From a virus: 64,000 nucleotides of DNA. Positions 20,201-58,988 of the stretch are shown here, piece by piece; position 1 is the stretch's first letter; each line of letters begins with the position of its first letter. The notes under the pieces are model-generated. The model saw only the letters and a list, made by a program, of their open reading frames with translations. It did not search any database and was not told the origin of the DNA. The position numbers and the translations under genes are program-made. Location of the stretch: the UHGV virus genome UHGV-1368192, one strand, 5' to 3'.

Positions 20201-21959
20201 TCCCCATGTCTCGGATAATCTCATCCTTCAGAGCTGCTCTTGCAGCGCCTTCGGTTTCAAATAGCTTGTTGCCATAGCCATCCTTTGCATCCTTAAAGTA
20301 CTTGATGACCAGGTCTATTATGATCTCAGCCATCTTATCCTTGAGGTCGTACTTCTTTATAGATGCATCAATACTCGTCTTGTTATCCGAGATGTTCTTC
20401 CTGATTTTCTCTGTAAACGCTATCAGCCTAGCTCTCTCGCTATCAGACATCTGTATAGCCTCTGACCCCTCCGTCTTATTAAGCATCAATATGATGTCAT
20501 TGGCAAGTTCTTCGTTTTCCTCAAGATTCTTTGCCACCATATAGATGTTCCTGAGGAGAGAGGCAGAGACGTTATACGCAACAAGACTCTTATCACCATT
20601 CGTTAGGATGTTATCCACGTCCTTCATCTGGTCTACAACGGCAGACGCATAGTCGTTCATGATAGTCAGGCCCTCAATGAGGCTATCTATAGCGTCCACA
20701 GCGATAGCCGTGCCAAGGGCTGAGTTCACTCGACCTGATGCAACACCAAGCAGGTTTCGGGCTCCATCGATGTAATCGATCCTATCCTCGTCAAGGTTAG
20801 TCCTAAAGAGCTCGCCCTTCTTGACTGACTGACTGTAGAAGGCGTTGATCCTACTCTTTAGCTCCTCTGCGATCCTATTGATCCCAGCGATCTCATTCTT
20901 GATTCCTGTGCTGTTAGCGATGGCAGCATACAAGCTCCTACCCTTCACGATCTCAGAGAGGTGCTCATTAGAAAGCAGCGCCTTCTTGGCTACAATCTTA
21001 CTGGCATAATCCCTGAAGAGTCTGTCGGTGTGCTCTACCTCATTGAGGAAGACTCCGTCAGTGATGCCATGGAAGAGATCCTTGATAGCCTGCCAGATGC
21101 GGCTGAGGAAGGAATAGTGTTTTCCTTCGTACTGTCCGAGGATATGCTGAGTGAGGAGCTTGGCCATTGCCTCTCTCCTCAGAAGGTCCTGTGAGCCATC
21201 ATAGAGCTCGCTGTACGTCTCAAACTCCTTGCCTAGTATCTCCTTCACCTGGGCACTAGATATCGCGTTAGAGAGCCTCTCACGCAATGCTGGTGGTGCA
21301 AACTCCAACGCGATGTGTGCAAGCTCCTCGGTGAGGACCTCATTAGATGAGCCATTAGCCACGCGGATGAGTGCAGCCAGCTTATTGGTGGCTTGTGCGG
21401 TCTCGAGGAAGACGGTCTCGCCTGCCTGTCTCAGTCCTTCCTCAATGGCCTCGAAGTGCTCTACAGGAATGCCGTAGTGTTCAAGGAGCGCCATGATCCT
21501 ACCACGTAGGACAGCCTGCCTCTCAGCATCAGCCTTGGCTTCCCTATCCTCGGTATAGGACAACTTGTATCCTTCCTCAGTCACCTCAGGCACCAAGGGC
21601 GTACGCTCGGAGATAGGATCCTTGTTACCTTTCCTCACAGCCGCAAAGGCAGAATCGTAGGTCTCAAAGTGATTATCCTCGCCAGCATACGTACGGACCA
21701 TATAGGATCCGTACGAGCTAGCAGGGAACATATCCCCGACCGGGGTCAGGGCCAGGACATCTCGTCCTGACCACTGGCCTTGATCGTTTTTCTTTAGGTC
21801 ATGCCCATAGTCTTCAAACCACTTGCTGATGGATGCGTAGTAGGCATCTACTGTCGCGTTCCTATCTTGCAAGATGTCTCCAAGCTCCATGAACATCTTA
21901 CTTCTCTCTTTCCCACGCGGTGTCTCAACCGTTGGGTACATTACACATGACTTACTCAT
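17208..21959 (-). CDS. giant protein (1583 aa), putative virion or ejected protein
   Basis: 4.75 kb ORF on the minus strand. It overlaps the upstream giant gene by 4 nt. No recognisable catalytic motif. Confidence 0.5.
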   Translation of the reverse strand: MSKSCVMYPTVETPRGKERSKMFMELGDILQDRNATVDAYYASISKWFEDYGHDLKKNDQGQWSGRDVLALTPVGDMFPASSYGSYMVRTYAGEDNHFETYDSAFAAVRKGNKDPISERTPLVPEVTEEGYKLSYTEDREAKADAERQAVLRGRIMALLEHYGIPVEHFEAIEEGLRQAGETVFLETAQATNKLAALIRVANGSSNEVLTEELAHIALEFAPPALRERLSNAISSAQVKEILGKEFETYSELYDGSQDLLRREAMAKLLTQHILGQYEGKHYSFLSRIWQAIKDLFHGITDGVFLNEVEHTDRLFRDYASKIVAKKALLSNEHLSEIVKGRSLYAAIANSTGIKNEIAGINRIAEELKSRINAFYSQSVKKGELFRTNLDEDRIDYIDGARNLLGVASGRVNSALGTAIAVDAIDSLIEGLTIMNDYASAVVDQMKDVDNILTNGDKSLVAYNVSASLLRNIYMVAKNLEENEELANDIILMLNKTEGSEAIQMSDSERARLIAFTEKIRKNISDNKTSIDASIKKYDLKDKMAEIIIDLVIKYFKDAKDGYGNKLFETEGAARAALKDEIIRDMGKYSSKNNKFSAFLTPVATNGDLIHVLIARFIKATENRGNMAIMARSQATESKLTEIKEKHNLQNEDQWSLRRDKNGRITGEIVSPFKWLEFEAEKEKIAEKVEKGLNEKLAEYRRIHKANMDYESVHQERRGLEEYYKEEWEREHGSKLTEEYIVGQREDGSDIVETLPGDFFRNEEYYNLSDGQKEFVDALYDIKKDLDVWSGLKPEPWKLPLFARRGSSKELNPIKRVAAINWKQKILGGVIGIEEYEGVHTRDPLGTLLFVHKPKGYTQFGLELSKNPDVDYLTDPIGAMKNYAASSAYYTRMAAIRHIVELTRILDVENRGYHSRKNGVGRDKMADYDAYINRTIYEKNVINDERPDWDKRLDAAMDPFNDLVYVTGLGLNAVSGIKNLINGFLRATALGDSRTGYNATSLVKAILLAHREIPSRWKFNKRGIVEDPLTSLLFLMDSSHDGREAFMQGNVSQVRSLMSLFSTETLMAPLTMGDEWMKTSFAIAYLLNVEAGELNPEAKEKFKGKSLYDYMKDLKAPEGVRMTKFVEDSLIAFSGAKNREEMYNWLGGHSQRLLLGTQRTLGAYNDNDRAAANSYAIGRAVLTFRNWMPVIISDMFRGTRYNAQNQEFEEGAYTTLWKMMHVKGEDGKDSISAMHALGTAAVAMFVPFMISKTLRGAVQKKFHLSDMQANNLHRLGRSALIVHAMRALTDTLYVAMLTMGFADDDDDEPWYETLAQLALHFLTSLTPLLGPYAVKLGLIHTDLYDRMRRNYARYNEAADKSTSQQLETAKRFLNKQMKDISLGIIADLYGLASAGSNELHPGDPIAFAMAMVQNNMFGAGAGVKKMDFGQSIESMATSGVAGYKTMMSLFSGIGDTYNRIVNNSQEGKKKANPTEWENENRYIEESDDSFIVKAWRRYKNDMENGSPADRTFWNVFVVGIIGRNMFNIPFVGDSFREKQMKDIKKYQPTYLTPLPDNFFMKYNNLAGDAVLDYGVFHRDSDDDE

Positions 21960-24900
21960 TGTCTACATGCATTATTATTCTCTTCTGTTTGAGTCTTCTC
22001 AACCTCTGCTATCACGCCAAAGAGCGGAGAGTATGATACGGCTTCTGAATGAGCCTTGGCCTTGAGTGGTCCGGACTGCTCTATCAACCCATTCTCAGCC
22101 AGGCGAACGAGATTCAGCTTCTCAGGCTGCGCTCTCTGGAGCGAAGGTAATAGATAGTCTCCGTCCATCCTATAGTCGTTGTACAGCGTTCCATCCTCGG
22201 TCACGATACCCCTTGGGTCGATCCTGGTGTAGACCGTGTCCCCTGCGTAGGCTCTACTGTCTATGCCCTGGACGTAGATGATGCCACGGTTGGGCTGATC
22301 CTTATCTGCGATGACATAGACAGGATCCCTCTTCTCACTTGTCACCATGATATAGTCAGGAGCGATACCGCCTGTGGTCTCCAGTAGTGCGACAGCGTCT
22401 TGCTGTGGCACAACACGGCCAATCTTCCTGATGTTCTCCCTGACGTAGTTCTGCATGAACTGATGAGTGAACTCAGTATCTAGCTCCTGTCCAGCCCTCA
22501 GCTCAAGGGCATCGAACTTGATCCTCTCAAGCATCGCGTTGCGCCCCATCATAAGAGCCTTCACTGACTGAGGTATAGCCTGTAGCATAGCCTTCATGTT
22601 CGGATTACCACTCATGTAGGTTGCGTACAGAGCTAAGCCCTTGAGGAGCTCATAGTCCCTAAGAGCCTTTGCACGCTCTACACCGGTCAGTCGAGTGTTG
22701 TGCGCCTGCTCGATGATATCCTCAAAGGCAGCTGTAGCCTTCGCCATGGCCTTCTCCTCACTCGGAGTACCAAGACTCTTGAAGACCAACGACTGGAACG
22801 TCCTCTTCTTCCATTGCTTGTCGATGAGGACAGGTACGATGTTCTCCTTGCCGAGACCTACTATCTTCTTCAGGGACTCTGGTGCAGTCCTATTGAAAAT
22901 GTCTGGGAACTTGGTGATAATCTCCTGCGCCAGGACATTCTTCTTTTCCTCATCCTCAGAGTAGGTAGTGATAGCTGAGCTTACGTACTGATCGTATGCA
23001 GAGAGGAACTTCTTAGTAAAGTCCATCGTAGGCTTTACACCGAGTCTCCTAGCCGTCTCTACGATAGAGAGGGCAAACATAGGTGATACCTTAGGGTTGT
23101 AGACAGACTCTGCATACATCGTTCCGAAAAGACCAAGGCCCAGATACATCCTGTAGAAGTGCCCATCCTTGTTCTGCTCGATGAAGGTCTTAGTGGTAGC
23201 ATTAGGACTGAGCCCTGGCAGAGTCCTCAGTGGTACGATGATACCCTCATGCCTGATATACCTGTGATTCTGCGCGCGCTCGATCTGGTCGATAGACTTG
23301 ACCATAGCGAAGACAGACTCATTGACACCACCCTTAGGTCCGCTTGAGGAGACATCAGACTTGCTCTGGAAGACAAGGTCCTTGATCTCTGATGCAGCAT
23401 TCACCACGTCTATGAGGAGGTCAGCAACACGCTTGACGGACTCCTTCGTTCTTAGATCCAACTTATTGAATGCCTCTACTACCTTGTCGTCAGTAGCATT
23501 GAGAGCCTCCTTGATGAGATCCTGGGTCTCGAACTTAGAACATTCTATAAGGTCCTCCATAGACACGTCTACAGATCTATTGCTTTTAACCTCACCGCCC
23601 TGAGCTAGCGCCTTGAAGAGAGCCTGTGATCGTCCCTCATCACCCTCGAGGTTGGCAATGTGCTTCCACAGAGGTGTGGCAGTGATAAGACCAATGATGC
23701 TCCCTGGCACACCCATCCTCACCATAGTGGCGATGATAGACGCATTATCCATAGTGATGTCAGCAAGACCGATCACAGGGTCCTTAGCGTTATCCACAGA
23801 TGCAGCGCTGTACTCCTCAAGGATACGAGAGACATACGTCTTGTCGTCGCCTATCATTCCATTGAGTGACTGATATGTTGCGCCAGCGATCTTAATGGGT
23901 TTCTCCAGCTCGAGGAGCTGTGCCTGCTGGAAGACGCTCGTAGCGGTGTTCTCATTAGCGAATACACCTACGAGACCGAGACCAGCCTTGTTCTGTCTCT
24001 GCATCTCCATCTCCACCTCAGACAGGGCGATGTTCTTGCCTGACCTAAAGATATCTACGATCTCATTGATCTTGTCGAGGTCGAGGTTATGCAGGTATTC
24101 AAAGATGACCTTGTCACCGATCTTCTTGTCAGCCTTGTCGTCAAGGACCTGCTCAAGGATCTCCTCAAGCCTCTCCTTGCTTATCTTACTGATGATGTAG
24201 CCAATCTTCAGGTCCTTCTTCACACCATCATAACCGCCAGGCTGTGCCATCTCTAAGGCCGCCTGTGGGCTCCTCAGAACGCCTCTGATGATGTCAAAGA
24301 GTACGTTGGTTCTCTGCCTTTGGTTGAGATCCCTGGTGTTGACACCGCCATTCTTGAAGACTTCTGCAGCTGAGTAGTTGATGTCAAGAACTGCGGGCCT
24401 CTTAGGCATCTTCTTGTCACCTCTGATCTGAGCCTGACGCACCTTCTCATCATAGTCCTTCTTGATTTCAGCGATCTTCTTTTTGCCAGGACCAACATCC
24501 TTCTTCATAAAGAAGAGCTTGTCGACGTCGAAGTCAAAGCCCGCCTGAGCAATACACTCATGAGGAACCTGGATAACACCACCGGCAACACGAGGCAGGA
24601 AGCCCACGATACGGAGAGGGAAGGCTGAGTACTTAGACTCGGTAGGAATACGATAAGCTACAAGCTCAAGGAGATCCTCTCTACCATCCTTCTCAATCTT
24701 CTTGACATCGATCTCTCCCTTCTCATTAGCGTACTCAAGGATCTCGCTAGAGTGTGGCGTGACACGTACAGGTACGTAGTCGATGGACCCATCCTCCTTG
24801 TACTGAACCTTCAGGTCGTTAGACGCTTCAGCTGAGCTCATCTGGATGAGTGATCCCCCAGGGACCATCATCTTATAGATCTTCTTCGCTGCCATCGCGT

Positions 24901-27900
24901 AGAAGGCAGAGTGCAGAGCATCCTGGAACGAAGGATCGTAGATGTCGTTCGTGAAGTGCTTACGTCCGTACTCGTCTACGTGAACCTCAAGGTAGTCCTC
25001 GCTAGATGGATCGTAATAGTCACTATCCATAAGTGCATCAAGTATCTTTCTCCTCAGACGATCGAAGCGCTTGTTGTAGCTCTTGACACTCTTCTTGCTG
25101 ATACCCTCGCTGTCAGGGTTCATCTCGATACCTGACTTGATGAACTCATCGATAGCGTGCTGACCTACGATCTCATTGATGGCTGCCTTGATCTGATAGC
25201 CAGACACCTCTACTCCGGCGATCTCAAAGGTATCCAGGTTATTGAGGTTGGTCGTGATGATCTTCCTCAGCTGTGTACCAAGCCTCTGCCACGTGTTGAA
25301 AGAGTGAAGGGGCGTTGAGGTCTGGATACCATAGTACTTATACGGCATGTCCTTGACCTTCTTTTCGTCAAGTTTGATACGACCATTCTCATCTCTATCC
25401 ACTATGTGTCTCTTCCTACCATCGATCTCCACCTCTGTGCTAGACTCTACTAGCTGCGCGGTGATAAAGTCAGAGATATCATCAGTCATGATCTTTGAGA
25501 ACTCAGCCCTGTACTTCTCTACCTCTTCCTCAGACAGCTCCTTCTTCTTTACGTAGTCTGCCATATTCTCATCGAACTCCTCAAGACTAGCAGCTGTGAT
25601 GGTCCTCTTCTTGCCGTTGTTGACCTCGAACGTGTACTTGATAGGAGCGATATTATCCAGGCTGAGGTCTACGGTAGCATAGTTACCTACCTTAGATGCA
25701 CTATTATACTCAATAGCGTCGATCTGGTTATCCTCCATGAACTTCACAAGCGCATTGAGGAAAGGAGAAGATACCCCTTCCTCATTAAGTCCAGTGAGGA
25801 GAGCCTCAGAGTGCTTGTACTGCTGAATGACCTTGGTATCCCTATCACCGTCCTTGACATGGATGTCGCCGTAGTACAGGCTCTTGATGACATTAAAGCG
25901 GTGGTCCTTGATCTTGGCGTAGTCAGGCTCACGACCTTCCTTGATAGCATTAGCCATCTCCTCAAGAGCTTCGATAGCTCCATCAGTATAACCCTGCCCT
26001 GAACCCTCAAGGATACGCTTGTAGCCTGAAGGTGACAGCCAAGCCTGTCCGTCGGTAGCTGTGATCTCGCTATAGGCCTTGAGTGAAGCGTCATAGCCAG
26101 CCTTGGTGATAAGCCCAAGCTCTTTCTTCTTATCGAGGATAGCCTTGATCTCCTTGGTTAGCCTATCAGCCATACGGTCATTGATGACGACAGTACGCCT
26201 TACAGCGTTCTTCTCCATGTCAAGCCTCTGGGTATTACTCTGCGCCTGCTTAGCACGCTTGACCTCATTGACCATACTACCAAGTACAGCCTTATCACCA
26301 TAGAGCAGATGTCCGATCTGGATCCTCCAGAACACACCATTGAAGGCAAGTGCATATTGCTCCATTGCTTCACCCTTATGGTCAAGGGCAAACTCATCCC
26401 ATGACTGTACCTCATTCTGAACCTCCTGATTGAACTGTATCTCTACCTCATTCCTCAGGACCTCCTCTAGTTTAGTGAGGTCCGTGTTACGAGCTCTGTT
26501 ATACGCGTGGATGAATTTCACCCTGTCGAGATCCGAGAGGTTCTTGTCAATCATGGCACTCATGATGTTGTACTCGATACCCTCGACCTTCGCTGTGAAG
26601 TCATTGAGCCCAGGTAGCGATACGAACCTATGAGCCATGCTATCCCTCTTACCGATCTTCATAGCCTTCTCCTTGCCAAAGAGCACGTGCTGAGCTCTCC
26701 TGGCTTCATTGTAGGCAAGCATGGTGAGGTGGTTTATAGCGAACTCTCTGTCGACCTTCCTCTTGTTTTCATCCTCCTTCATAGGATCGAGTCTCCTCAC
26801 CTTGACGAACTCAAGGGTGGATGCTTCTGCGGCTACAGGTAGGTGAGCCCAGTAGTAGGCGTTGTCCTTATCCCTCTGAGAGTCGTAGTAGAGGTTAGCA
26901 AGCTCATTGCTATTCCACTTGTTCATCTTGCGACCATTGTGCACAACGACTCTCTTCCTTGAGAATAACCCTGACACAAAGCTCTTCGCAACGTAAGCGT
27001 CATTGAGGAAGGCGTTAGCTGTATGATACTTGCCCTGTATTCCCTCTAACGCAACCTGATTCCTGTAGATCTCATCCTTGTCAAGATACTCGCGCCGTAT
27101 TGTATCTACGATCTTAGGATGCCTGTTGTTGCCCCTAAACTGTAGCTCCTGGAACGCCATATCACGATATGACGGTGCGAGGCTTGATGCAAAGAGGAGA
27201 CCCTCTACGCTTGTTCCAGTAGTGTCATAGCTCAATACTCCTGTGTAGAATACTGCGCTAATCTTTGATAGGCTACTATAGACGTATGAGAAGTCTGAAC
27301 CCCTCGTGAAGTCTATTGGCGACTTCAGCGTGAACTTCTTGCCGTCACCCATCTGAGCGGCAAGCTTTCTCAGGTTCTTTGCGTAGTCAGCTATTGAGAA
27401 TCTCAGCATGGTGAGGATGTCGTGACGTGATCCCGAAAGATTCCTATCCCCTGTTGGAGGCACAGTGCTTGCTGAATTGTTGTACCCTCTCGTTGTCTGT
27501 GCTGCCTTAGTCCATTCGATAGACAGCATCCTTGGCTCAACAAATATCCCAAACTTCTGCAGCAACTTAGACACGCGCTCCTGTAGCTGAATGAGTCTTT
27601 CGGCTTCAGTCAGCTTCATTTCAAGTCCACTGTCCATGCTGAAGTCCAGACCGACCAGGTCTATCATAGATTGGTCTATCTCTGTGGCGATCTTGTCTAT
27701 CTCCTCAACCGACAGTGTTAGACCATCTACACCAAAGGCTTCTGTGAACTTGCTTGCCCACTTACTGATGACATCAAGATTTGATGACCTATCCGCCATG
27801 AACACAAATCCCTGGCTATCTCTGACAGCGTACTTTATCCTGATCTTGTTTATCGCAGAGAACAGCTGTGATGCCATAGCCCTCATCCTCTTGCGCTTCT

Positions 27901-29827
27901 GGATGGACTCTTCGTTCCTGTAGTCAATGTAAGGGCGCAGCTGCTTTATCCATGGCTCTACGGTCTCCATAACTTCAAGACGCTCAAGCATGTCCTCGCT
28001 GTTCTCAATGCCCTCCATAAGAGAGGCAAGGGTATTGTAGGTCTCACCAAGTGACTTGAACTTAGTGTACCCGAACGAGTCGGTGATAGGCTTGCCGTCA
28101 AGATCCACATCCTCGATGACTGAGAATAGAGCCCTTACCGCTGGGGTGATAGTCGACATTACTGACTTCTCCTCAGCCTCAAGGAACCTGACATCCTCTC
28201 CAGCATCTCCTTCCTCAGAACTCCCTGTCTCCTCAGAGTCTTCTGCCTGGTCTCCTTCCTCATCGAAGAGGTCGTCAAAGAGATTACCCTCATATAGGTC
28301 GTCATCTCCGTCTTCTTCCTCATCAGCATCTTTGAGCTCCTCAGCCTCGCTGATCTTCTCAAGAGCTATGGTAGAGCCAAGTATCGATCTTGCGACCTTG
28401 TTGGTGGCAAGGTGGAACATCCTCTCATCCTTATCGATATTCGTCTCGATATTCTTTAGGGTGTCCCTCTCACTCATCACGAAGCCATAGGATGCCGCTA
28501 CGGCCTCTATAATAGCATCACGCTGCTTTGATATCTCTGGGTCGTTCTGAAGCCGTACAGCCTTGATGATAGCCTCGTCAAGGGCTGTCCTGTCGAGGAG
28601 CCCATTAGGATCCTCACTAAATACCAAGTACGTCTTGAGTGCCTCAGCAAAGATTTCCTTGTCCTCAAGCCCTACGTTCCTCAGTGCCCTATCAATGATG
28701 ACATCCTTAGCCATCTTATCAGCCTTGTCTATGCGATTGCTGATAGCGGCCTTGGTTAGAGCGTATAGAGTCTCCTTAGATTCCTTGCTCTTGAAGTCAT
28801 GTAGGAACCCACCATCTTCCTTGAGGAGAGAAGAGACAACGCCCTTGACAACATCTGTAAGGACTCTCTGTTCCCTTCTGTTCTTCCTGCTCTCTATAGC
28901 TCGTGCGGAAGCGTCTGCGTTCTGTCGGTAGCCAAGGACCGATGCGTCATGAAGAACCCTGACACCCTTATCCACCATATTCTTAGCTTCTGTCGCTATA
29001 AGGCTATAGATCGTTGAGTCTACTACACCCATGGCGTTTCGCTCGGCTACAGATAGCATCCTGATCTCTCCGTTACCAGCCAAGCTATGAAGCACATCGA
29101 TGACCGACATCTTAGCCTTCATGGCTTCGTTGACCATATTAGTAGAGACATCGACAAACTCTTCCTTGATCCTTGCTACAGCGTCATCGCTAAGCCTCGT
29201 CTTGCCGTCTCCGTTCTTGATAAGCTCATTGAGCACAGCGCCGGTATCGACGCTCCCATCTGACTTACGGTAGTCCTTGAAGCCCGACTGAATGATCTTG
29301 GCAACTCGCTCGATGTTCTTCTCAAGGTCACTCCTATCCAGGGCGTATCTCGCGCGCTTCTTGTAAACATTGTCAAGGATACGAACGAGGATAGCCGAGT
29401 TGAGATCGTTGATCTTACCTATAGCGTCCTGCGTCAGGAACTCATAGGCGTTGTTCTCCAATGCGTTCTGGATATAGAGTGGCACGTAAGACATGACAGC
29501 CTTGTACCCATCAGTCTCCTGGATGGGTCGACCATCAGGCTTCATCTTTCCGATCTTATCCAGTACTGCATCAACCTCCTCATTATTCTTGATAAGCTCC
29601 TGGAACTTGCGCTCAAGGATACGGATCGTGCTCTTCTTAGTAAGCTGATCGTTAGTAAACTCGTACCCTTGCGTCATCTCGGTATAAGCAATAAGCGCCT
29701 GGACCTTTTCTACTTTGTCGGCCAGGTGCTTGATTGGACTCATACCTTCTTGCCCTTCATACTCGGACTCGTTGATCAACTTCTTGATCTCCTCGTATGT
29801 CTCGGGGCTCAGTATTCTACAATGCAT
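21956..29827 (-). CDS. giant protein (2623 aa), candidate virion-packaged RNA polymerase
   Basis: 7.9 kb ORF. It contains AQAGFDFDVDKLFF, reminiscent of the DFDGD metal-binding loop of two-barrel RNA polymerases. Its size and context match crAss-like giant RNAP genes. Confidence 0.4.
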   Translation of the reverse strand: MHCRILSPETYEEIKKLINESEYEGQEGMSPIKHLADKVEKVQALIAYTEMTQGYEFTNDQLTKKSTIRILERKFQELIKNNEEVDAVLDKIGKMKPDGRPIQETDGYKAVMSYVPLYIQNALENNAYEFLTQDAIGKINDLNSAILVRILDNVYKKRARYALDRSDLEKNIERVAKIIQSGFKDYRKSDGSVDTGAVLNELIKNGDGKTRLSDDAVARIKEEFVDVSTNMVNEAMKAKMSVIDVLHSLAGNGEIRMLSVAERNAMGVVDSTIYSLIATEAKNMVDKGVRVLHDASVLGYRQNADASARAIESRKNRREQRVLTDVVKGVVSSLLKEDGGFLHDFKSKESKETLYALTKAAISNRIDKADKMAKDVIIDRALRNVGLEDKEIFAEALKTYLVFSEDPNGLLDRTALDEAIIKAVRLQNDPEISKQRDAIIEAVAASYGFVMSERDTLKNIETNIDKDERMFHLATNKVARSILGSTIALEKISEAEELKDADEEEDGDDDLYEGNLFDDLFDEEGDQAEDSEETGSSEEGDAGEDVRFLEAEEKSVMSTITPAVRALFSVIEDVDLDGKPITDSFGYTKFKSLGETYNTLASLMEGIENSEDMLERLEVMETVEPWIKQLRPYIDYRNEESIQKRKRMRAMASQLFSAINKIRIKYAVRDSQGFVFMADRSSNLDVISKWASKFTEAFGVDGLTLSVEEIDKIATEIDQSMIDLVGLDFSMDSGLEMKLTEAERLIQLQERVSKLLQKFGIFVEPRMLSIEWTKAAQTTRGYNNSASTVPPTGDRNLSGSRHDILTMLRFSIADYAKNLRKLAAQMGDGKKFTLKSPIDFTRGSDFSYVYSSLSKISAVFYTGVLSYDTTGTSVEGLLFASSLAPSYRDMAFQELQFRGNNRHPKIVDTIRREYLDKDEIYRNQVALEGIQGKYHTANAFLNDAYVAKSFVSGLFSRKRVVVHNGRKMNKWNSNELANLYYDSQRDKDNAYYWAHLPVAAEASTLEFVKVRRLDPMKEDENKRKVDREFAINHLTMLAYNEARRAQHVLFGKEKAMKIGKRDSMAHRFVSLPGLNDFTAKVEGIEYNIMSAMIDKNLSDLDRVKFIHAYNRARNTDLTKLEEVLRNEVEIQFNQEVQNEVQSWDEFALDHKGEAMEQYALAFNGVFWRIQIGHLLYGDKAVLGSMVNEVKRAKQAQSNTQRLDMEKNAVRRTVVINDRMADRLTKEIKAILDKKKELGLITKAGYDASLKAYSEITATDGQAWLSPSGYKRILEGSGQGYTDGAIEALEEMANAIKEGREPDYAKIKDHRFNVIKSLYYGDIHVKDGDRDTKVIQQYKHSEALLTGLNEEGVSSPFLNALVKFMEDNQIDAIEYNSASKVGNYATVDLSLDNIAPIKYTFEVNNGKKRTITAASLEEFDENMADYVKKKELSEEEVEKYRAEFSKIMTDDISDFITAQLVESSTEVEIDGRKRHIVDRDENGRIKLDEKKVKDMPYKYYGIQTSTPLHSFNTWQRLGTQLRKIITTNLNNLDTFEIAGVEVSGYQIKAAINEIVGQHAIDEFIKSGIEMNPDSEGISKKSVKSYNKRFDRLRRKILDALMDSDYYDPSSEDYLEVHVDEYGRKHFTNDIYDPSFQDALHSAFYAMAAKKIYKMMVPGGSLIQMSSAEASNDLKVQYKEDGSIDYVPVRVTPHSSEILEYANEKGEIDVKKIEKDGREDLLELVAYRIPTESKYSAFPLRIVGFLPRVAGGVIQVPHECIAQAGFDFDVDKLFFMKKDVGPGKKKIAEIKKDYDEKVRQAQIRGDKKMPKRPAVLDINYSAAEVFKNGGVNTRDLNQRQRTNVLFDIIRGVLRSPQAALEMAQPGGYDGVKKDLKIGYIISKISKERLEEILEQVLDDKADKKIGDKVIFEYLHNLDLDKINEIVDIFRSGKNIALSEVEMEMQRQNKAGLGLVGVFANENTATSVFQQAQLLELEKPIKIAGATYQSLNGMIGDDKTYVSRILEEYSAASVDNAKDPVIGLADITMDNASIIATMVRMGVPGSIIGLITATPLWKHIANLEGDEGRSQALFKALAQGGEVKSNRSVDVSMEDLIECSKFETQDLIKEALNATDDKVVEAFNKLDLRTKESVKRVADLLIDVVNAASEIKDLVFQSKSDVSSSGPKGGVNESVFAMVKSIDQIERAQNHRYIRHEGIIVPLRTLPGLSPNATTKTFIEQNKDGHFYRMYLGLGLFGTMYAESVYNPKVSPMFALSIVETARRLGVKPTMDFTKKFLSAYDQYVSSAITTYSEDEEKKNVLAQEIITKFPDIFNRTAPESLKKIVGLGKENIVPVLIDKQWKKRTFQSLVFKSLGTPSEEKAMAKATAAFEDIIEQAHNTRLTGVERAKALRDYELLKGLALYATYMSGNPNMKAMLQAIPQSVKALMMGRNAMLERIKFDALELRAGQELDTEFTHQFMQNYVRENIRKIGRVVPQQDAVALLETTGGIAPDYIMVTSEKRDPVYVIADKDQPNRGIIYVQGIDSRAYAGDTVYTRIDPRGIVTEDGTLYNDYRMDGDYLLPSLQRAQPEKLNLVRLAENGLIEQSGPLKAKAHSEAVSYSPLFGVIAEVEKTQTEENNNACRQ

Positions 29828-31596: not shown

Positions 31597-31635
31597 AAAA
31601 AAAGGGGAAAGCACTGATAATCAGCACCTTCCCCC
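31597..31635 (-). terminator. rho-independent terminator (minus strand)
   Basis: Read on the minus strand: GGGGGAAGGTGCTGAT..ATCAGTGCTTTCCCC followed by TTTTTTT. Confidence 0.65.
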
Positions 31636-31675
31636 TTTCGTCTATATATATTTATAGTTAGTATAGTAGCGAGCG

Positions 31676-32263
31676 TTATAGCGGATCGATTATGTCCAGG
31701 TATTCCTGCGTGTGGAATACGTAGTAGACATTCTTCCATCCCTGTACGCTCTTGCCTTTCATAACCCAGAGTAGACTCATGAAGGCTGCGTCCTGCAGTA
31801 GTCGCTCTGGACTCATCTTACCTGACAGCTTCATGGGTAGCTGGTAGTGGCTATCGATGAACTCAATCTCCTCTACCGCATATTCTTCCATAGATTCAAA
31901 TCTACCAAAGTACTCGGTCTCAAAAGCGTCTGGCGAGGCTAGCGCTTCGTATTCGAATACTTCGTCCTGTCTCTGTAGCCACATCTCGTATGGCTCTCTT
32001 AGCGAAGCCTTCAGCTTTCTGTTTGCTTCAAAGAACTCGCAGTCGATACCTCCTTTATTAAGTAGTACCTCTGGAACTCCATATAAAGCTATGATTTGCT
32101 GATTGACCTCTCTTAGGTTTTTCCATACGTATCTATCGAAGTCGTCTTTGTCCGTCATGTTTGACAGATCTACCTTGATTGCATCCTTAGGTGAGACCAT
32201 GCCGTCTATCACTGGTGCTACAGCTACCCATGCCCCATCAAAGATTCTCTTTTCTTGTTCCAT
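31676..32263 (-). CDS. ArdA-like anti-restriction protein (diverged)
   Basis: Acidic. YFGRFESMEEYAVEEIE matches the ArdA Y.G.wdSeEDfA block. The C-terminus ends ..YYVF, like ArdA GHVF. Confidence 0.4.
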   Translation of the reverse strand: MEQEKRIFDGAWVAVAPVIDGMVSPKDAIKVDLSNMTDKDDFDRYVWKNLREVNQQIIALYGVPEVLLNKGGIDCEFFEANRKLKASLREPYEMWLQRQDEVFEYEALASPDAFETEYFGRFESMEEYAVEEIEFIDSHYQLPMKLSGKMSPERLLQDAAFMSLLWVMKGKSVQGWKNVYYVFHTQEYLDIIDPL

Positions 32264-32275
32264 GTCTTTTGCTTA

Positions 32276-32860
32276 TTACCAGTTAGGTATCTTGAAGAAG
32301 TAGTTGTACTCTCCTCCATGTACGAAGCAATTCATAAACTCTTCTGAAGAGAGCATCTCCTCCTTGGTCATCCCGGTTACATCCACGTCAAGCTCGTACC
32401 TGATGGGATCTGACTTTACTGAGTCTGCGAAGTCCTCTACGTCATCGTATGATCCCAGGTGGTTGTCCCAGAAAGAATCGATATCCAGTCTCACCTTCTC
32501 CTCGTTTCCCTTGAAGTGCTCGAGCTGAGCCTCTACCCAGAACTCGTATGCCTTGGTGTCACACTTATTCAGGTTCTGGTTGATCTCGAAGAACTCTGGC
32601 CGTAGCTCGAAGTTCTTCATGAAGAATGCTGGCATATCGCTAGTACCGATAATCTTTGGTGGCATCCTCTCGTATCCGTAGTTCAACTCCCTGCAGTAGG
32701 CGTTAAACATGTGGGCGCTTGAGAATGGGTATAGTAGTACCCAGTCACCGCACGTATGCTTTGTCTCAGTGTCGTTGAGGTCCATCTTCTGGAACTCTTC
32801 ATATGGCACTACATACACCTTGGCGGTGGGGTAGGCCACAAATAATGGGCTCTTATTCAT
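32276..32860 (-). CDS. ArdA-like anti-restriction protein (diverged)
   Basis: KVYVVPYEE...GDWVLLYPF resembles the ArdA N-terminus. LGSYDDVEDFADSV matches the central ArdA block. Confidence 0.4.
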   Translation of the reverse strand: MNKSPLFVAYPTAKVYVVPYEEFQKMDLNDTETKHTCGDWVLLYPFSSAHMFNAYCRELNYGYERMPPKIIGTSDMPAFFMKNFELRPEFFEINQNLNKCDTKAYEFWVEAQLEHFKGNEEKVRLDIDSFWDNHLGSYDDVEDFADSVKSDPIRYELDVDVTGMTKEEMLSSEEFMNCFVHGGEYNYFFKIPNW

Positions 32861-32879
32861 AGTTGTCTTGTTGTTTAGC

Positions 32880-33266
32880 TTATTCCTCTGGCATCAGTAC
32901 TTCTGCATCCCAGTATAGTTGATCGTTGTTGAGTAGCTCGTATAGGCTCTCACCTGTACTCTCAAGTACCCAGCATCCTCTAGAGAATACTACGACATCA
33001 TCGATCTCTCTTGACATCGCTGTGCCGTCTCTATCCATCCACTGATAGCCACCTACGATTCTGCATCCTTCAAAGACTAGCTTACCGTTTAAGTCTATTC
33101 CTGTGTATTGATAGACATAGGCTACGCGCGCTACGTCTGTTTCCTCACTCATGTATGGACCTAGGATCAGCCAATCTATGCCGTTATCATCATGGCAAGC
33201 TGATCCAGTGACCCACTCATTCCTGGCGTTGTACCCGCCAAATAGTATATCTCTTTCTTCTTTCAT
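32880..33266 (-). CDS. YopX-like protein
   Basis: YTGIDLNGKLVFEGCRIV resembles the YopX core YTGLKDKNGKEIYEGDIV. Confidence 0.35.
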   Translation of the reverse strand: MKEERDILFGGYNARNEWVTGSACHDDNGIDWLILGPYMSEETDVARVAYVYQYTGIDLNGKLVFEGCRIVGGYQWMDRDGTAMSREIDDVVVFSRGCWVLESTGESLYELLNNDQLYWDAEVLMPEE

Positions 33267-33329
33267 CTTGGTTATAGTGGTTGAGGAAGAGAGAAAGATG
33301 TTTCCACCTACTCTCCCTTCCTCAGGTGA

Positions 33330-33977
33330 TTATTCTCCGGTAAGACTCTCAGCTACCTGATACAGCCTGTATCGCTTAGCAAAGTCCTTAACCATATTTA
33401 GGTCGTTGTCAGTGTAGATAACCTCCTTGACGGTATCTTCTGAGTCTAGACAGCTCTTTATCTCTAGGTAATACCTTCCGGTAGCACCTTGTGAAATGAG
33501 GAAGTACAGCTCACCATCCTTGCTCAGGCTGAGAATCTTTGCGTACATGCATGACTTCAAGCCTGACGTAGTCGGTAGCTCTACATCCTTCCAGTTCAGT
33601 GGTGGCATCATACTCTCTAGGACTTCCGACTGAGTGACTCTTCGATATATCAAGCTGTTAATGTTATTAGCTCGATCATTCTCCGCTAGCTCCATTAACT
33701 CACCAATATCACCTCTCGTTTCTGCGAATGGTTCAAGTTCATACTCTTCCCCATTGTCCTTCACGATTACGATATTGAGCTTTGATGGTGTACTCATGTC
33801 TCCTCTTACTATTTGATAGTATGAAGTCTCATTCTTGGAGAGCCGGATGTTGAGTGCCCTAATAAACCTGATCATCTCGATCTTCCCGGTTGCCTCAGGA
33901 TTGATGGGGTTCGCTATCTTATCGACTATCTTCCAGTCTAGTGGTTGTTTTGTCTTGTATAATCCTATCTTGTTCAT
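33330..33977 (-). CDS. hypothetical protein (215 aa)
   Basis: ORF with 11 nt spacing to the next gene. Confidence 0.5.
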   Translation of the reverse strand: MNKIGLYKTKQPLDWKIVDKIANPINPEATGKIEMIRFIRALNIRLSKNETSYYQIVRGDMSTPSKLNIVIVKDNGEEYELEPFAETRGDIGELMELAENDRANNINSLIYRRVTQSEVLESMMPPLNWKDVELPTTSGLKSCMYAKILSLSKDGELYFLISQGATGRYYLEIKSCLDSEDTVKEVIYTDNDLNMVKDFAKRYRLYQVAESLTGE

Positions 33978-33988
33978 ATCCTTGTTGT

Positions 33989-34540
33989 TTAGATGTACCC
34001 CTCTAAGTGAAACACGTAGATTACCTCTTCGCCTTTCTTCTCAGGGTGGGGGCCATTTATCATTACTACACTGCTCATATAGCACCTATCCTCAAGCACG
34101 TCCTCTGGCTTTAACTTTTCAGACAGCATGATGGGGATGGTATTTAGATCATCCCAGGTCTTTATGATATGCCGTGCGTAGTCCTCCTTATTATCGAAGA
34201 AGCCGTAGTACATCTCCATTACATCCTGTGGATCTACATCTCCCTTCAGATCATCAATGTACAGCTCATAGGCAATTAGCTCCTCATCGTTTAGAGTCCC
34301 TACAGCCTTAAAGAAGTTATCCTTGATGATCTCCTTGCTCTCCCAGTCCACAAGGGCTGCAGGCATATCAAATCCGATAGAGTGCTTTTCCCAGCCATTA
34401 GACAGATATTCCTGTAGCTCATTGGCAAACTGGTCCTTTGTCATCTTGCCTACGGAGAACCTCTTGTCTTTGTAGACTAGCTCTCCAGCCTTCATCTTCT
34501 TTGCGATCAGGACGATGGCTTCGTCTTTTAATGTATTCAT
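33989..34540 (-). CDS. ArdA-like anti-restriction protein (diverged)
   Basis: YYGFFDNKEDYARHII matches the ArdA central block. The C-terminus ..IYVFHLE resembles ArdA GHVFE. Confidence 0.4.
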   Translation of the reverse strand: MNTLKDEAIVLIAKKMKAGELVYKDKRFSVGKMTKDQFANELQEYLSNGWEKHSIGFDMPAALVDWESKEIIKDNFFKAVGTLNDEELIAYELYIDDLKGDVDPQDVMEMYYGFFDNKEDYARHIIKTWDDLNTIPIMLSEKLKPEDVLEDRCYMSSVVMINGPHPEKKGEEVIYVFHLEGYI

Positions 34541-35046
34541 TGTTGTTCTTTCTTGAATGATTCTTTTGTGATGATGGTGTGATGCTTGGCGATGTCGTAG
34601 TCTATCATTCCATCCGTTATCTCGTCTGTGGCAACGAAGATATCCACCTCGTCCTTTTCCTTGTCGTATGAGGCGTGGTACAAGATAGAGCTTTCATCTG
34701 GGTACTCCTCATTGATTATCGAGGTAAGCTCTCTGGCGGTACCAGCATTAAGACCATCAGCTTCCTCATAGAAGTTGACAAGATTTTCCTGTACCATCTT
34801 GATGAGTCGGATCTGGCCGTCTTCCCATCCCTGGATACCCTCTACAGGGCTCCAGCTTACGTCTCCTTGATCAGCCAAGGCCTTGAGTTCCTCGGCAGTC
34901 TTGTCGTACTTGATGCTGATGTATAGATCTGCTGATTCATAGTTGCCTTCTGAACAGACCGTTTCTAAGCCTGTGGTCATTGTTATGACAAACTCAGCCC
35001 CATTGATCTTGACTGGGTTGCCCTGCATTCTTATGATTTCTCTCAT
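34537..35046 (-). CDS. hypothetical acidic protein (169 aa)
   Basis: ORF with 4 nt overlap to the upstream gene. Confidence 0.5.
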   Translation of the reverse strand: MREIIRMQGNPVKINGAEFVITMTTGLETVCSEGNYESADLYISIKYDKTAEELKALADQGDVSWSPVEGIQGWEDGQIRLIKMVQENLVNFYEEADGLNAGTARELTSIINEEYPDESSILYHASYDKEKDEVDIFVATDEITDGMIDYDIAKHHTIITKESFKKEQQ

Positions 35047-35052
35047 TGTTTC

Positions 35053-35676
35053 TTACTTAATATCGATTGGTACATCTAGCTGCTTGAGGAAGATCCTACC
35101 CTTGTAGGCCTCATAGCAAGCCTTCACTGCCTCTTCCTCAGCCATATCGAATGAGGAGAGGAATTGGAATTGAGGAAAGCGATGATCCATCCAGCGCTTA
35201 TTTCCGTGAATGAAGTCCTCAAGATTAGCATAGCCCTTACCTACCAGCTGCATCCTGAAGAGTGCAGGCTCGCAGACATACATAGGCCAGTCGTAAGGCT
35301 GTCCTGGCTTTCCCTTGCAGCCTCTGTTGGCCCATTCCTCCCAGACAAGGTAATCCTCCAGCTCTTCCTCAAGAAGGTCTCTGTGGACCTTGTAGAAGGC
35401 CTGAGAGAGTCTTCCCTCGCAGATAAGCCCTTGAGGAAAGTTAGAGGTGTTGAGGAAGAGGATATCTGGATTCCTCTCCTTAGGGAAGAGGGCTTTGCAA
35501 GCCGCCATATACTCCTCTACAGAGCTATAGTTGCCTGGCGTGGTCCACTTCCCGATGCTTAACTTCTTAGTGTCGTCATTGCGCATAGCAATGAGCTGTG
35601 TCGTGACGTATAGTCGCGCGCGTCTTAGTCCTCCGTCCATATTAGTAGTCTGAAAATACGAAGCCTGGCTTGCCAA
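35053..35676 (-). CDS. ArdA N-terminal-domain-like protein
   Basis: RLYVTTQLIAMRNDDTKKLSIGKWTTPGNYSSVEEYMAACKAL matches the ArdA N-terminus VYIANLGKYNEGELVGAWFTFPIDFEE. Confidence 0.5.
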   Translation of the reverse strand: MASQASYFQTTNMDGGLRRARLYVTTQLIAMRNDDTKKLSIGKWTTPGNYSSVEEYMAACKALFPKERNPDILFLNTSNFPQGLICEGRLSQAFYKVHRDLLEEELEDYLVWEEWANRGCKGKPGQPYDWPMYVCEPALFRMQLVGKGYANLEDFIHGNKRWMDHRFPQFQFLSSFDMAEEEAVKACYEAYKGRIFLKQLDVPIDIK

Positions 35677-36235
35677 TCACTTCGTTGTCAACGTATGTGT
35701 AGTCACTGATGAAGAGGTCTCTCTTGAAGGCATCAAGGTCGAAGTAGAAGTATGGTGATATATTCTCTACCTTCTCGATCTCTTCTCCGTAGCACTCATT
35801 CATTAGCTCCTCTGCGAAGTCCTCTTCGCTGTAGTACTGACCTTTGTATCGGTCCTCAAACTTCGATGCGTCCACTGAGCTTACACTCCAAGGGTTGTTG
35901 TGGTAGTTGTGGATGTAAGCCTCAAAGGCCTCATGTAGATCCTCATCCAGCTCGTCAAACGCATCCTTGGTGGTGAAGAAGGACCAATCGATCTCGTTAC
36001 TGCCTTCCTGATAGATGCGGTCATCATCGATGCCCTCTACCTCAAGGATCTTAACCTCGAGTTCTCCTTCCTCATCGTCCCCATAGTATTCCTCTAGGAG
36101 ATCTTCTACATCTTCCCAGTAGTCTAGATCCTTGAGTTCGATCTCAAGACCTCTCTCATTGGGATCTTCAAGGTATCGCTTGCTTGTGGTCACTCGTACC
36201 TTGGATTCATAGATCTGTTCTCTGATAGTTGCCAT
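35642..36235 (-). CDS. ardA: ArdA anti-restriction protein (C-terminal domain clear)
   Basis: FEDRYKGQYYSEEDFAEELMNECYGE followed by YFYFDLDAFKRDLFISDYTYVDNE...GFVF matches the ArdA ..YIDYQAYGRDLDLSGTFISTNHGIFEIV. Confidence 0.6.
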   Translation of the reverse strand: MATIREQIYESKVRVTTSKRYLEDPNERGLEIELKDLDYWEDVEDLLEEYYGDDEEGELEVKILEVEGIDDDRIYQEGSNEIDWSFFTTKDAFDELDEDLHEAFEAYIHNYHNNPWSVSSVDASKFEDRYKGQYYSEEDFAEELMNECYGEEIEKVENISPYFYFDLDAFKRDLFISDYTYVDNEVIGKPGFVFSDY

Positions 36236-36258: not shown

Positions 36259-36633
36259 TTAGAGCTCTACTATTTCGGAGCCGTCGTGTTCCTTAGCCTC
36301 AGGTTTTTCGTATGGTTCTCGCACGGAGCCCTTCTTCAGGTACTTGAAGGCCTCCTGATCCAGCTCGTTCTCAATATCCCTGATGAGCATCTCGTAACTC
36401 ATACGCTCCATACCCAGAGCCACCGATGCTGGCAGGTTACTCATGATCTCCTTACGGAAGCGGCGTGAGGAGAAGAGGCCACCGAACCATACTGTCTCTT
36501 CCTCATAAAGGAATCCTGTGACCTTGATATTTGATACCTTGAGATCAAGGATAGTACGCTGCTCGTACTTGCGTGTGATGCTTGTGATAGCTTTAGTCTC
36601 TCGAGTGAAGACAAAGTTCTTGATCGTTTTCAT
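36259..36633 (-). CDS. hypothetical protein (124 aa)
   Basis: ORF only. Confidence 0.45.
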   Translation of the reverse strand: MKTIKNFVFTRETKAITSITRKYEQRTILDLKVSNIKVTGFLYEEETVWFGGLFSSRRFRKEIMSNLPASVALGMERMSYEMLIRDIENELDQEAFKYLKKGSVREPYEKPEAKEHDGSEIVEL

Positions 36634-36703
36634 TGCGCTTATATTTGTTTTGTTCTTAGTATTTCTATTCTTTCTTTGATTGTACTACATATAGGGGTAA
36701 TAA

Positions 36704-36733
36704 GGGGGATCAGCTGCAACTGATCCCCCTTTT
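36704..36733. terminator. GC hairpin, terminator-like
   Basis: GGGGGATCAG ctgcaa CTGATCCCCC followed by TTTT on the plus strand. It lies 1-2 nt downstream of the stop of the minus-strand gene 36735..37601, where the minus-side U-tract is weak. Confidence 0.4.
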
Positions 36734-36734
36734 C

Positions 36735-37601
36735 CTATTCTCTTAGTGCGTCTTCTTTTGACATAGACCTTAAAGCAATACCGTTGCGTGCGGCAAATCG
36801 TATGGGCTCATCTGTACCCGGGAAGTACACGTTACACACATTGTCCCACTCCCTATCCTCCAGGATCCTCTTGACCGCAAGGTCATTCTCCTGTAGCCTC
36901 GGGATGAACTTAGGCCCGAAGGGTCCGTGTCCTATATACCACATGCCAGAAACACAGGACATCTTGATCTCCTCATCGGACATATCTGCCATCCTGTATA
37001 TGACTGCGTGATCGTTGTAGGCGTTAGTAATCTCCTTAGTCAGTCCGGACATCAGGCCTCGCAAGTACGCAACCTTATGCTTAACTGATACCTGACTGCT
37101 GGAAATCACGTCACCCCTATTAGATACCGCTATGGTATTAAGGACACGGAAACCTCTCTGACCTTCCTTGATGTATAGTAGTGCGCTCTTCTGTAGCTTG
37201 GTGAAGGCGTGCTCATCAAAGACAGTTAGTGTGTCCGTCATCATCCTTTCCTCACGCCTGTGTACCCCAACCAAAACACCATAGGCAAACCACTCCCTCT
37301 CAGATTCTCTCTCGATCATCAGATAAGAAAGAGGAAGAGTAACAGAAAAAGAAGGAAGGAAAAGACCATCACGCCTTTCCTCAATCTCTTCTGGCATGAC
37401 TGCCACTGGTGTCTGTATTGATCCCAACATAGGGATAGGTACATAGGAACAGGTCTTGAGCCTCGTGGGTTCTCCATACATGATACGTCCCCTACGGAGC
37501 CCCTCCTCAGTGAGGAAGGTGCAACCGTTAGCGTCCCTCAATGGTATAGGACCTTTCTCTGCCGTCATCACAACGGTGGATGCTTTATATCCTCTTCGCA
37601 T
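36735..37601 (-). CDS. hypothetical protein (288 aa)
   Basis: ORF only. No clear motif. Confidence 0.5.
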   Translation of the reverse strand: MRRGYKASTVVMTAEKGPIPLRDANGCTFLTEEGLRRGRIMYGEPTRLKTCSYVPIPMLGSIQTPVAVMPEEIEERRDGLFLPSFSVTLPLSYLMIERESEREWFAYGVLVGVHRREERMMTDTLTVFDEHAFTKLQKSALLYIKEGQRGFRVLNTIAVSNRGDVISSSQVSVKHKVAYLRGLMSGLTKEITNAYNDHAVIYRMADMSDEEIKMSCVSGMWYIGHGPFGPKFIPRLQENDLAVKRILEDREWDNVCNVYFPGTDEPIRFAARNGIALRSMSKEDALRE

Positions 37602-41103: not shown

Positions 41104-41655
41104 TTAGTTGAAAGGTAGATCATCGATGGATGAGGAGAAGGGATCTTTGTCCTCTTCCTCATGATCGTAGCTTGAAGGATGGACGAACTCCGTAGTCTCA
41201 GCATCCTCTACTGGGATGATGTCGTGATCGCCCTCTTCCTCAGGATCGAGATCTGGTGTCTCGTCTTCCTCAGGTTCTTCGATGTCTGGCTGTTCGTCCT
41301 CAGCCTCGTCCTGGTCCTCATTGCTGGGGATGACGACTACGATCTTCATCTGTTCGTCGTGACTGAGGTCAGCGAACTCCTTGGGGCTGAGACCACCGGT
41401 GAGCTTCTTGAGGTGCTCAGCGTTGAGGTCGATGAGTGTCTTGTAGGATTCCTCCTCTACACCCATAGCCTCTAGTTTCTTAGCGTATCGAGCTCGTACA
41501 GCCTCTGCTGCACGCTGTGCTGCACGCTGAGCTTCTTCCTCGCACTTAGATGCTACTACTGTTTTCTTCTCCTCAATACCGGCTACCTTAGACTTGTAGT
41601 CTTCGATGACCTTGAGGATCCAGCGCATTGCTGTTACTTCTGTTCTTGATGCCAT
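41104..41655 (-). CDS. acidic protein with an SSB-tail-like C-terminus (..SIDDLPFN)
   Basis: N-terminal coiled-coil, highly acidic C-terminal half ending IDDLPFN. Confidence 0.4.
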   Translation of the reverse strand: MASRTEVTAMRWILKVIEDYKSKVAGIEEKKTVVASKCEEEAQRAAQRAAEAVRARYAKKLEAMGVEEESYKTLIDLNAEHLKKLTGGLSPKEFADLSHDEQMKIVVVIPSNEDQDEAEDEQPDIEEPEEDETPDLDPEEEGDHDIIPVEDAETTEFVHPSSYDHEEEDKDPFSSSIDDLPFN

Positions 41656-46112: not shown

Positions 46113-46544
46113 TTATTCCTCATCCTCTTCCCCATCGTCGTCCTCCTCAGGATCATCTTCTCCTGGGAAGGGGAACTCTACCTCGATAGCTTCCTCATCT
46201 CCTTCTTCAGCCAGCTCGTACATCTTGACACCGCTATACATCATACCGAAGGATTGAATAACCAGGCCCCACAGCCCAAGCTCCTCGATCCAGATGAAGA
46301 TGGTCTCTGGGTATCGCTTGGTGATTCTTAGGACCTCGTATAGATCCTTGTTGGTGAGGAGACAGGTATAGCAATCATCCTCAGTATCTGTAACGCGCAG
46401 GACCTCTGATGTGAAGCACTCCTCTCCCATGTAGGCGCATTCGTTCGTCTCATTCATCTGCAGAGCCTTACAGCACGCTACGGTGTTGTGGAGCTCATCG
46501 ATGATCTTCATTAGGTTAGTTTCCTTGACTCTTAGCTTTCTCAT
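46113..46544 (-). CDS. hypothetical protein with an acidic C-terminal tail (143 aa)
   Basis: ORF. C-terminus EDDPEEDDDGEEDEE. Confidence 0.5.
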   Translation of the reverse strand: MRKLRVKETNLMKIIDELHNTVACCKALQMNETNECAYMGEECFTSEVLRVTDTEDDCYTCLLTNKDLYEVLRITKRYPETIFIWIEELGLWGLVIQSFGMMYSGVKMYELAEEGDEEAIEVEFPFPGEDDPEEDDDGEEDEE

Positions 46545-49139: not shown

Positions 49140-49188
49140 ATTTCCTGTGGTTTATAAATGAGAATAGCCGACCTCATGGCCGGCTGTG

Positions 49189-49260
49189 TACCCCGAGATG
49201 GAATCGAACCATCATCGTAAGTTTAGGAAACTTATGTTCTATCCGTTGAACTATCGGGGC
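49189..49260 (-). tRNA. tRNA-Arg (anticodon CCT)
   Basis: The minus strand reads GCCCCGA-TA-GTTC-AACGGATA-GAAC-A-TAAGT-TTCCTAA-ACTTA-CGAT-GATGG-TTCGATT-CCATC-TCGGGGT-A. This gives a complete cloverleaf of 72 nt. The GGTTCGATTCC T-arm is present. No CCA is encoded. Confidence 0.8.
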
Positions 49261-58764: not shown

Positions 58765-58988
58765 GTCTTACTTGTTGTTGTTGGTTCGTTGATGATGCCT
58801 TCTTTAGTTCTCTTTACATAGATGCCTGCGTCATCTATGTATTCTTTCAGATCCCTTAGCTCCTGGATTGATGGGTACCTATTCTCAAACTCACATTGAT
58901 CTATGAGTTGATTTAGGTTACACCTCAGGACAGTGAGCATATTAGATGCGTCACTAAGGTTGGCCAGGATTACTTCTTTTGTACTCAT
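58752..58988 (-). CDS. hypothetical small protein (78 aa)
   Basis: ORF only. Confidence 0.4.
   Translation of the reverse strand: MSTKEVILANLSDASNMLTVLRCNLNQLIDQCEFENRYPSIQELRDLKEYIDDAGIYVKRTKEGIINEPTTTSKTWIN

Follow-up and report, generated by a model that had tools for sequence, protein, structure and literature searches.

A strain-variable array of five ArdA-fold paralogs in the replication module of a crAss-like phage

We describe here an array of five paralogous genes of the ArdA family in the virus genome UHGV-1368192, of which a stretch of 64,000 nucleotides was analysed (the window). The five genes, termed A to E by position (Table 1), span 4.6 kb between positions 31,676 and 36,235, with three unrelated small open reading frames (ORFs) interspersed among them. 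We show that genomes which are otherwise nearly identical differ in an island at ~31.7-35.0 kb within this part of the window, where alleles are gained, lost and exchanged. Taken together, we read the locus, with a probability of roughly 0.6, as a strain-variable counter-defence island that lies in the replication module of a crAss-like phage and is built on five ArdA-fold paralogs and the three unrelated ORFs. ArdA proteins such as Orf18 are acidic, elongated homodimers, joined through their C-terminal domains, that mimic ~42 bp of DNA and block the methylase core of Type I restriction-modification (R-M) enzymes, inhibiting restriction (and modification). ArdA itself is known, as are ArdA-like genes in phages, and a literature search, which was not exhaustive, turned up neither an ArdA described from a crAss-like phage nor a tandem array of several ArdA paralogs. 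Of 50 other viral contigs with an ArdA homolog, 49 carry a single copy within +/-8 kb, in agreement with the initial annotation of this DNA, which had called the array unusual.

Results

Homology of the five genes to ArdA

The initial annotation, made from the sequence alone, had placed five diverged paralogs of the ArdA superfamily in a phage. An ORF check of the window found all five leftward ORFs where they had been called, on the minus strand, and the family assignment is borne out by an independent hidden Markov model (HMM) of ArdA. This model was built from 54 ArdA proteins from outside this phage clade, with all 44 of its 44 viral members verified by Pfam. The search, with filters switched off, covered each of the 438 stop-to-stop ORFs in the window. 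Exactly these five ORFs ranked first, with E-values of 8e-25 for E, 7e-12 for B, 5e-11 for D, 1.5e-8 for C and 7e-7 for A; the sixth ORF followed at 0.24, which leaves the five set apart from the remaining ORFs by more than 5 orders of magnitude. Comparison with the reference ArdA alignment by hhalign gave 92.8% for A, 96.8% for B, 88.6% for C and 95.9% for D, the match of B reaching an E-value of 2e-10 over 116 columns that include the N-terminal domain.

Searches with the Pfam ArdA family (PF07275) are less generous. Its cut-off of 27 bits is passed by E alone (28.8 bits), B stays under it (14.7 bits, E-value 0.047), and no ArdA match was returned by Pfam for A, C or D. Read literally, no copy except E therefore matches the profile at the cut-off, an outcome that the initial annotation had itself held against its proposal. 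However, this result is overturned by the independent HMM, a profile search with A, B and C, the links among the paralogs and hhalign, which are both more sensitive and independent lines of evidence.

The paralogs are mutually 13-27% identical, and BLASTP links A to C (3.5e-10) and A to B (1.9e-8); the link between B and D is weak by this method (5e-4 against 9 sequences, 0.003 against 43). Family profiles compared by hhalign join A and C (99%), A and B (97.6%), C and E (74%), B and C (69%) and B and D (63%), all collinearly. As a control, 12 further proteins encoded by this phage, several with greater acidity, were compared with the families in 60 pairs, and the best P was 0.037. In addition, a profile made only from A, B and C with their orthologs was searched without a word index against 1.84 billion representative proteins. 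Apart from its own small family it recovered distant proteins, with library-wide E-values ranging from 5e-7 to 9e-4. Ten of these were scanned with Pfam: seven lie above the ArdA cut-off and one more reaches 25.1 bits. The same profile also matched P0072, an 802-aa helicase, in which eight Pfam HA (helicase-associated) repeats fall at profile positions 59-108 (E-value 2.3e-5), the positions of the ArdA central helical domain; the two may be genuinely, if distantly, related, or the repeats may have inflated the score.

At the level of structure, the predicted fold of A, the sole member of the A/B/C group that was modelled, matches the ArdA structure 2W82 uniquely, in keeping with the ArdA-like fold expected from the initial annotation. 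The three-domain architecture of 2W82, with a beta-beta-alpha-beta N-domain, a helical central domain and an alpha/beta C-domain, is found again. Single-sequence phmmer searches with E and B and a search with the E-family profile found no ArdA among PDB sequences, these searches being insufficiently sensitive, and PHROGs and NCBIfam had no match for any array gene. Other ORFs of 190-206 aa at 53-63 kb were considered as family members and rejected by BLASTP, Pfam and the independent HMM. Judged by these sequence comparisons, all five genes are ArdA homologs, and the only ones in the window.

Copies E and D and the charge of the array proteins

E aligns end to end with annotated ArdA proteins, and its match to the independent HMM covers model positions 40-202 of 206. 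Its closest outside relatives are annotated ArdA proteins from Prevotella and metagenomes, to which it is 36-47% identical. Judged by these alignments, E is a complete ArdA in which the N-terminal, central and C-terminal domains are all present. The initial annotation had assigned an unambiguous C-terminal domain to E only and an unambiguous N-terminal domain to D only; this division does not hold, as E spans all three domains and B has a clear N-domain by hhalign. D is ArdA-like in its N-terminal and central domains only, and its C-terminal third is divergent.

D had been called as 35053-35676, overlapping E by 35 nt. This overlap is an artefact of calling the ORF from its first TTG, because an ATG at 35640 lies one base past the TAA stop of E (35644-35642), and because in 13 of 13 related loci an ATG-started D ORF begins directly after the E ORF ends. 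The most likely start of D is thus the ATG at 35640, giving a protein of 195 aa. That D and E might be the two parts of a split ArdA gene was considered and rejected, since E is complete by itself and D, which has its own ATG, is a distinct paralog.

Charge was compared by composition only, with 57 ArdAs as a reference (median -15.7 net charges per 100 aa, 5-95% range -18.7 to -10.6). E, at -20.3, is more acidic than 96% of the reference proteins. The values for A, B and C, -7.7 to -8.8, lie at the weakly charged limit of the reference range or outside it, and amount to about half the usual charge. D is near neutral (-1.0 per 100 aa), a level typical for ordinary proteins of this phage. ArdA proteins imitate the DNA backbone by a dense negative surface charge, with a pI of about 4. 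Of the acidity expected for a set of such mimics, the ArdA-like density is found in E, but A, B and C have about half of it and D almost none.

The A/B/C subfamily and its variation among strains

A, B and C are each other's nearest relatives in the library of 1.84 billion proteins. Their subfamily comprises only about three full-length representatives at 50% identity plus fragments, and is confined to this phage lineage. That the three are closest to one another in public data points to their duplication within this lineage.

The same phage group is represented by 13 IMG/VR contigs (12.6-93 kb) and two ENA contigs (~91.6 kb). Of 14 related sequences, 13-14 can be aligned to the window outside ~31.7-35.0 kb, compared with only 4-9 for parts of that interval. 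B, like D and E, is present in all 13 related loci, with orthologs that are 65-93% identical, and A is found in three of the 13 and additionally in the related sequence L074. The C slot is occupied in four of the 13 loci by a full-length gene and in eight by a short one of 114-115 aa (L002, L004, L005 and L008-L012; e.g. L002:11207-11554), and in the remaining one the copy is frameshifted to 80 aa (L003:11690-11932). The long alleles have 183-197 aa. The short alleles lack the ArdA N-domain, beginning in the central helical domain and keeping the central and C-terminal parts.

In L074, the proteins of the flanks are 88-96% identical to those of the window, and D is 89% identical. Identities for the other array proteins are 39% for E, 50% for C, 52% for 34537-35046, 65% for B, 68% for 33330-33977 and 72% for A, so that the ArdA alleles (A, B, C and E) diverge by 28-61%. 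The E slot of L074 (L074:6364-6903) holds an ArdA allele of 179 aa, which, from its distance to the E of the window, is an allelic replacement and not the product of gradual divergence.

Pairwise ratios of nonsynonymous to synonymous divergence (dN/dS) are 0.08-0.24 for the island genes, compared with 0.05-0.15 in the other genes compared, and the island genes are therefore kept by purifying selection. These low ratios also led us to reject the idea that the copies are decaying pseudogenes, the exception being the frameshifted short C copy in L003. Synonymous divergence (dS) is 0.8-1.6 in the most variable genes (A, B, C, 33330-33977 and 34537-35046) versus 0.26-0.59 elsewhere, which indicates old alleles exchanged through recombination rather than decay.

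Three public metagenome proteins have unusual combinations of array segments. In P0068, residues 3-27 of E are fused to residues 144-194 of B; in P0071, the N-domain of a C allele is followed by the final 50 aa of the protein encoded at 33330-33977; and P0064 is a B without its central domain. These apparent deletion chimeras may be real recombinants or assembly artefacts.

Interleaved reading frames

The three ORFs that lie between the ArdA genes were also considered as ArdA relatives and rejected by hhalign against the five families; for 34537-35046 the comparison gave P>0.1. The ORF at 32880-33266 had been labelled YopX-like, a label we could not sustain: no YopX (PF09643) match was found in Pfam at E<=1 and no other significant family match was obtained, searches of PHROGs, NCBIfam, PDB and annotated phages being empty as well. 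The sole resemblance to YopX is a short stretch, YQYTGIDLNGKLVFEG, which has no profile support. The ORF is missing from four of the 13 loci (L001, L003, L009 and L010) and has a dN/dS of 0.085.

The C-terminal 60 aa of 33330-33977 gave weak but concordant matches to Pfam DUF5517 (E-value 4e-4, below the cut-off) and to PDB 4lid_A, 'A-100' (E-value 0.056); the protein is 44-87% identical across strains. No family match for 34537-35046 was found in Pfam, PHROGs or NCBIfam. Its alleles are either 57-59% or 91-93% identical to the window copy, apart from the L074 allele given above, and it is missing from three of the 13 loci (L001, L002 and L012), with a dN/dS of 0.22. Because of their position in the island, all three ORFs are candidates for new anti-defence proteins.

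Gene order and phage context

The eight minus-strand genes, five of them ArdA paralogs, are closely spaced, with gaps of -4 to 63 nt. A hairpin followed by a T-run lies 36 nt downstream of the A stop (Table 1) and, by its form, is the probable 3' end of the array transcript. Upstream of the array, a 12-bp GC-rich hairpin at 36702-36731 lies within the 100 nt that separate 36735-37601 from 36259-36633; it lacks a minus-strand T-run and may mark a boundary between transcription units. Matches to sigma-70 promoters were rarer in the region than in shuffled sequence and thus uninformative.

Table 1. Genes of the array and the hairpin that follows it (window coordinates)
Feature	Position	Strand	Properties
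Terminator-like hairpin, 19-pair stem then T-run	31599..31639	-	consensus scan and direct sequence reading
A, diverged ArdA paralog, A/B/C subfamily	31676..32263	-	195 aa, net -15
B, diverged ArdA paralog, A/B/C subfamily	32276..32860	-	194 aa, net -17
Interleaved acidic ORF, earlier labelled 'YopX-like'	32880..33266	-	128 aa, net -16
Interleaved ORF, non-ArdA, strain-variable	33330..33977	-	215 aa
C, diverged ArdA paralog, A/B/C subfamily	33989..34540	-	183 aa, net -15
Interleaved acidic ORF unrelated to ArdA, strain-variable	34537..35046	-	169 aa, net -20
D, ArdA-derived protein	35053..35640	-	195 aa from ATG 35640, net -2, pI 6.0
E, canonical full-length ArdA	35642..36235	-	197 aa, pI 4.05, net charge -40

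By the hallmark virion proteins of Crassvirales that Pfam identifies upstream in the window, namely the muzzle protein crAss_MUZ (2e-140) and cargo proteins 1 and 2 (crAss_CARG1 and crAss_CARGO2), this is a crAss-like phage. Its replication module occupies ~29.9-46 kb on the minus strand and includes ThyX, a RepL-like protein, a DUF3799 PD-(D/E)XK nuclease, DUF1064, a Toprim-like primase, AAA_24, DnaB and a SNF2-type helicase. The array is placed between the ThyX/RepL-like genes and the nuclease, primase and helicase genes. A DNA search of the region against GenBank phages gave no match, and the nuclease of the window is 34-41% identical to its counterparts in IAS virus and crAss001, there being no close GenBank phage.

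Elsewhere in the window, three small and very acidic minus-strand ORFs have no Pfam match: 41104-41655 (183 aa, net -32, isoelectric point (pI) 4.27), 46113-46544 (143 aa, net -26) and 63195-63611 (138 aa, net -16). They are unrelated to ArdA by hhalign and might represent additional DNA mimics or anti-defence proteins. Two more ORFs, at 58159-58764 and 58985-59395 on the minus strand, are paralogous to each other (BLASTP 4e-17, 32% identity over 139 aa). Giant ORFs extend over 9320-17128 (+, 2602 aa), 17208-21959 (-, 1583 aa) and 21956-29827 (-, 2623 aa), the second of which has no Pfam match, and a tRNA-Arg(CCT) is encoded at 49188-49260.

Discussion

If the locus is a counter-defence island, E would act as a classical ArdA, an acidic homodimer that, by analogy with Orf18, would imitate ~42 bp of bent B-form DNA, fill the groove in which the Type I R-M methylase core (HsdM2HsdS) binds DNA, and thereby keep the incoming phage genome from being restricted. 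A, B and C, together with the short C alleles, would keep the three-domain fold at half the charge and serve as specialised decoys with altered targets, a role suggested because the fold is retained, the charge is halved, selection is purifying and presence is strain-specific. Their targets would be other DNA-binding host proteins, belonging either to other Type I families or to other defence systems, and strains would carry differing A/B/C sets matched to the hosts they have met. D, by contrast, is probably not a DNA mimic any more because it is neutral and conserved, and would have taken on a core role.

Studies of related proteins offer precedents for such specialisation. Inhibition by ArdA and by Ocr varies with the R-M system tested, and the efficiency of ArdA differs among Type I subtypes (PMC10149784). 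Short ArdAs that consist only of an N-terminal or a C-terminal part are active and differ in their preferences for EcoKI and EcoR124II (PMC12548430), and the ArdA-like phage protein gp119 inhibits EndoV, a repair target (PMC13091555). By analogy, these three reports point in the same direction as specialisation of the ArdA-type mimics proposed here. In addition, Ocr is active against both Type I R-M and BREX, so that one mimic can act on multiple defence systems (PMC7261183), and ArdA proteins are reported to be able to change host gene expression (PMC13300388, PMC10746416).

Some considerations weigh against this interpretation. As ArdA mimicry is independent of DNA sequence, a single good copy might be expected to be enough to counter Type I enzymes. 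It is also conceivable that A, B and C are less charged because their mimicry has been weakened or lost, and not because they were retargeted. Furthermore, the reference ArdA ORFs were initially selected by HMMs that contained the five families, although all were then verified by Pfam.

How the array should be read depends largely on whether its members share one target. The initial annotation had offered a heavy investment against Type I restriction and, alternatively, decoys tuned to different host systems. In the former case all five copies would inhibit Type I enzymes, adding dosage or covering types IA-IE of the Bacteroidales hosts, and this would agree with the ArdA fold or homology common to all five, with the differing efficiency of ArdA among Type I subtypes (PMC10149784) and with the activity of short ArdA fragments against Type I enzymes (PMC12548430). 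However, such an investment presumes five acidic mimics, and only E has an ArdA-like charge, with A, B and C at half the density of reference ArdAs and D near neutral. Dosage would also favour near-identical copies, yet the paralogs are highly diverged, and the conservation of D like a core gene next to variable neighbours suggests different roles. We therefore consider a purely Type I-directed array unlikely, and judging from sequence features, decoys tuned to different systems fit better. A somewhat lower likelihood still is given to E alone being anti-restriction while A-D act outside defence, for instance by inhibiting, as replication proceeds, repair enzymes, nucleoid proteins or transcription regulators of the host. 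The location of the genes in the replication module, the action of gp119 on EndoV repair (PMC13091555), the neutral and conserved D, and the altered host gene expression reported for ArdA proteins (PMC13300388, PMC10746416) would all suit this explanation. Still, the presence or absence of A, B and C and their deep allelic divergence among near-identical genomes fit the pattern established for counter-defence accessory genes rather than that of housekeeping functions.

It is very improbable, finally, that chance similarity among acidic, helix-rich proteins explains A, C and D and leaves only E, perhaps with B, as ArdA. Although Pfam is empty for A, C and D and phmmer against PDB is empty, the 12 control proteins of this phage, which include several more acidic ones, gave hhalign P values of at least 0.037, the independent HMM separates the five ORFs by its wide margin from all others, and the fold of A has 2W82 as its unique match; for A, B and C this explanation is already refuted. 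Within the counter-defence reading that we favour, one may tentatively go further and imagine that the ArdA fold radiated in one crAss-like lineage into a swappable toolkit of decoys, although we hold this to be rather less probable than not. E would be directed against Type I R-M, while A, B, C and the short C forms would each face a different DNA-binding defence or repair system, possibly through mixed dimers formed via the C-terminal domain that they share, and D would have a new core function. If this were true, the exchange of cassettes from strain to strain would track the defence repertoires of gut hosts.

crAss-like phages are among the most abundant human gut viruses, and the locus bears on the little-understood question of how they withstand the many defence systems of Bacteroidales. 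Natural variants of one DNA-mimic fold, highly acidic, half-charged, neutral and N-terminally truncated, are found here side by side and exchanged between strains. The array thus provides a ready test of how the amount of charge and the domains present set the target specificity of a DNA mimic, and may be used as a marker for counter-defence islands in crAss genomes.

Compared with known systems, the array has both familiar and distinct features. Ocr (phage T7 gp0.3) is likewise a phage-encoded acidic DNA mimic that acts early in infection against DNA-binding defence enzymes, but it is a single gene with an unrelated fold, and the array showed no resemblance to it in sequence or structure. Among the published short ArdAs, sArdN and sArdC (PMC12548430) and Fletchervirus gp119 (PMC13091555), it is sArdC and gp119 that resemble the short C alleles, gp119-type forms covering ArdA domains 2-3; the published ones are single genes in other elements, whereas here the long and short forms, known from their sequences, are alleles of one array slot. 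ArdA/Orf18 of Tn916 (2W82; PF07275) is a DNA-mimic inhibitor of Type I R-M, and conjugative elements and some phages normally carry just one ArdA gene. In the array Orf18 has five counterparts, among which A, B and C are restricted to this lineage and carry about half the charge, and D is neutral with a divergent C-terminal third.

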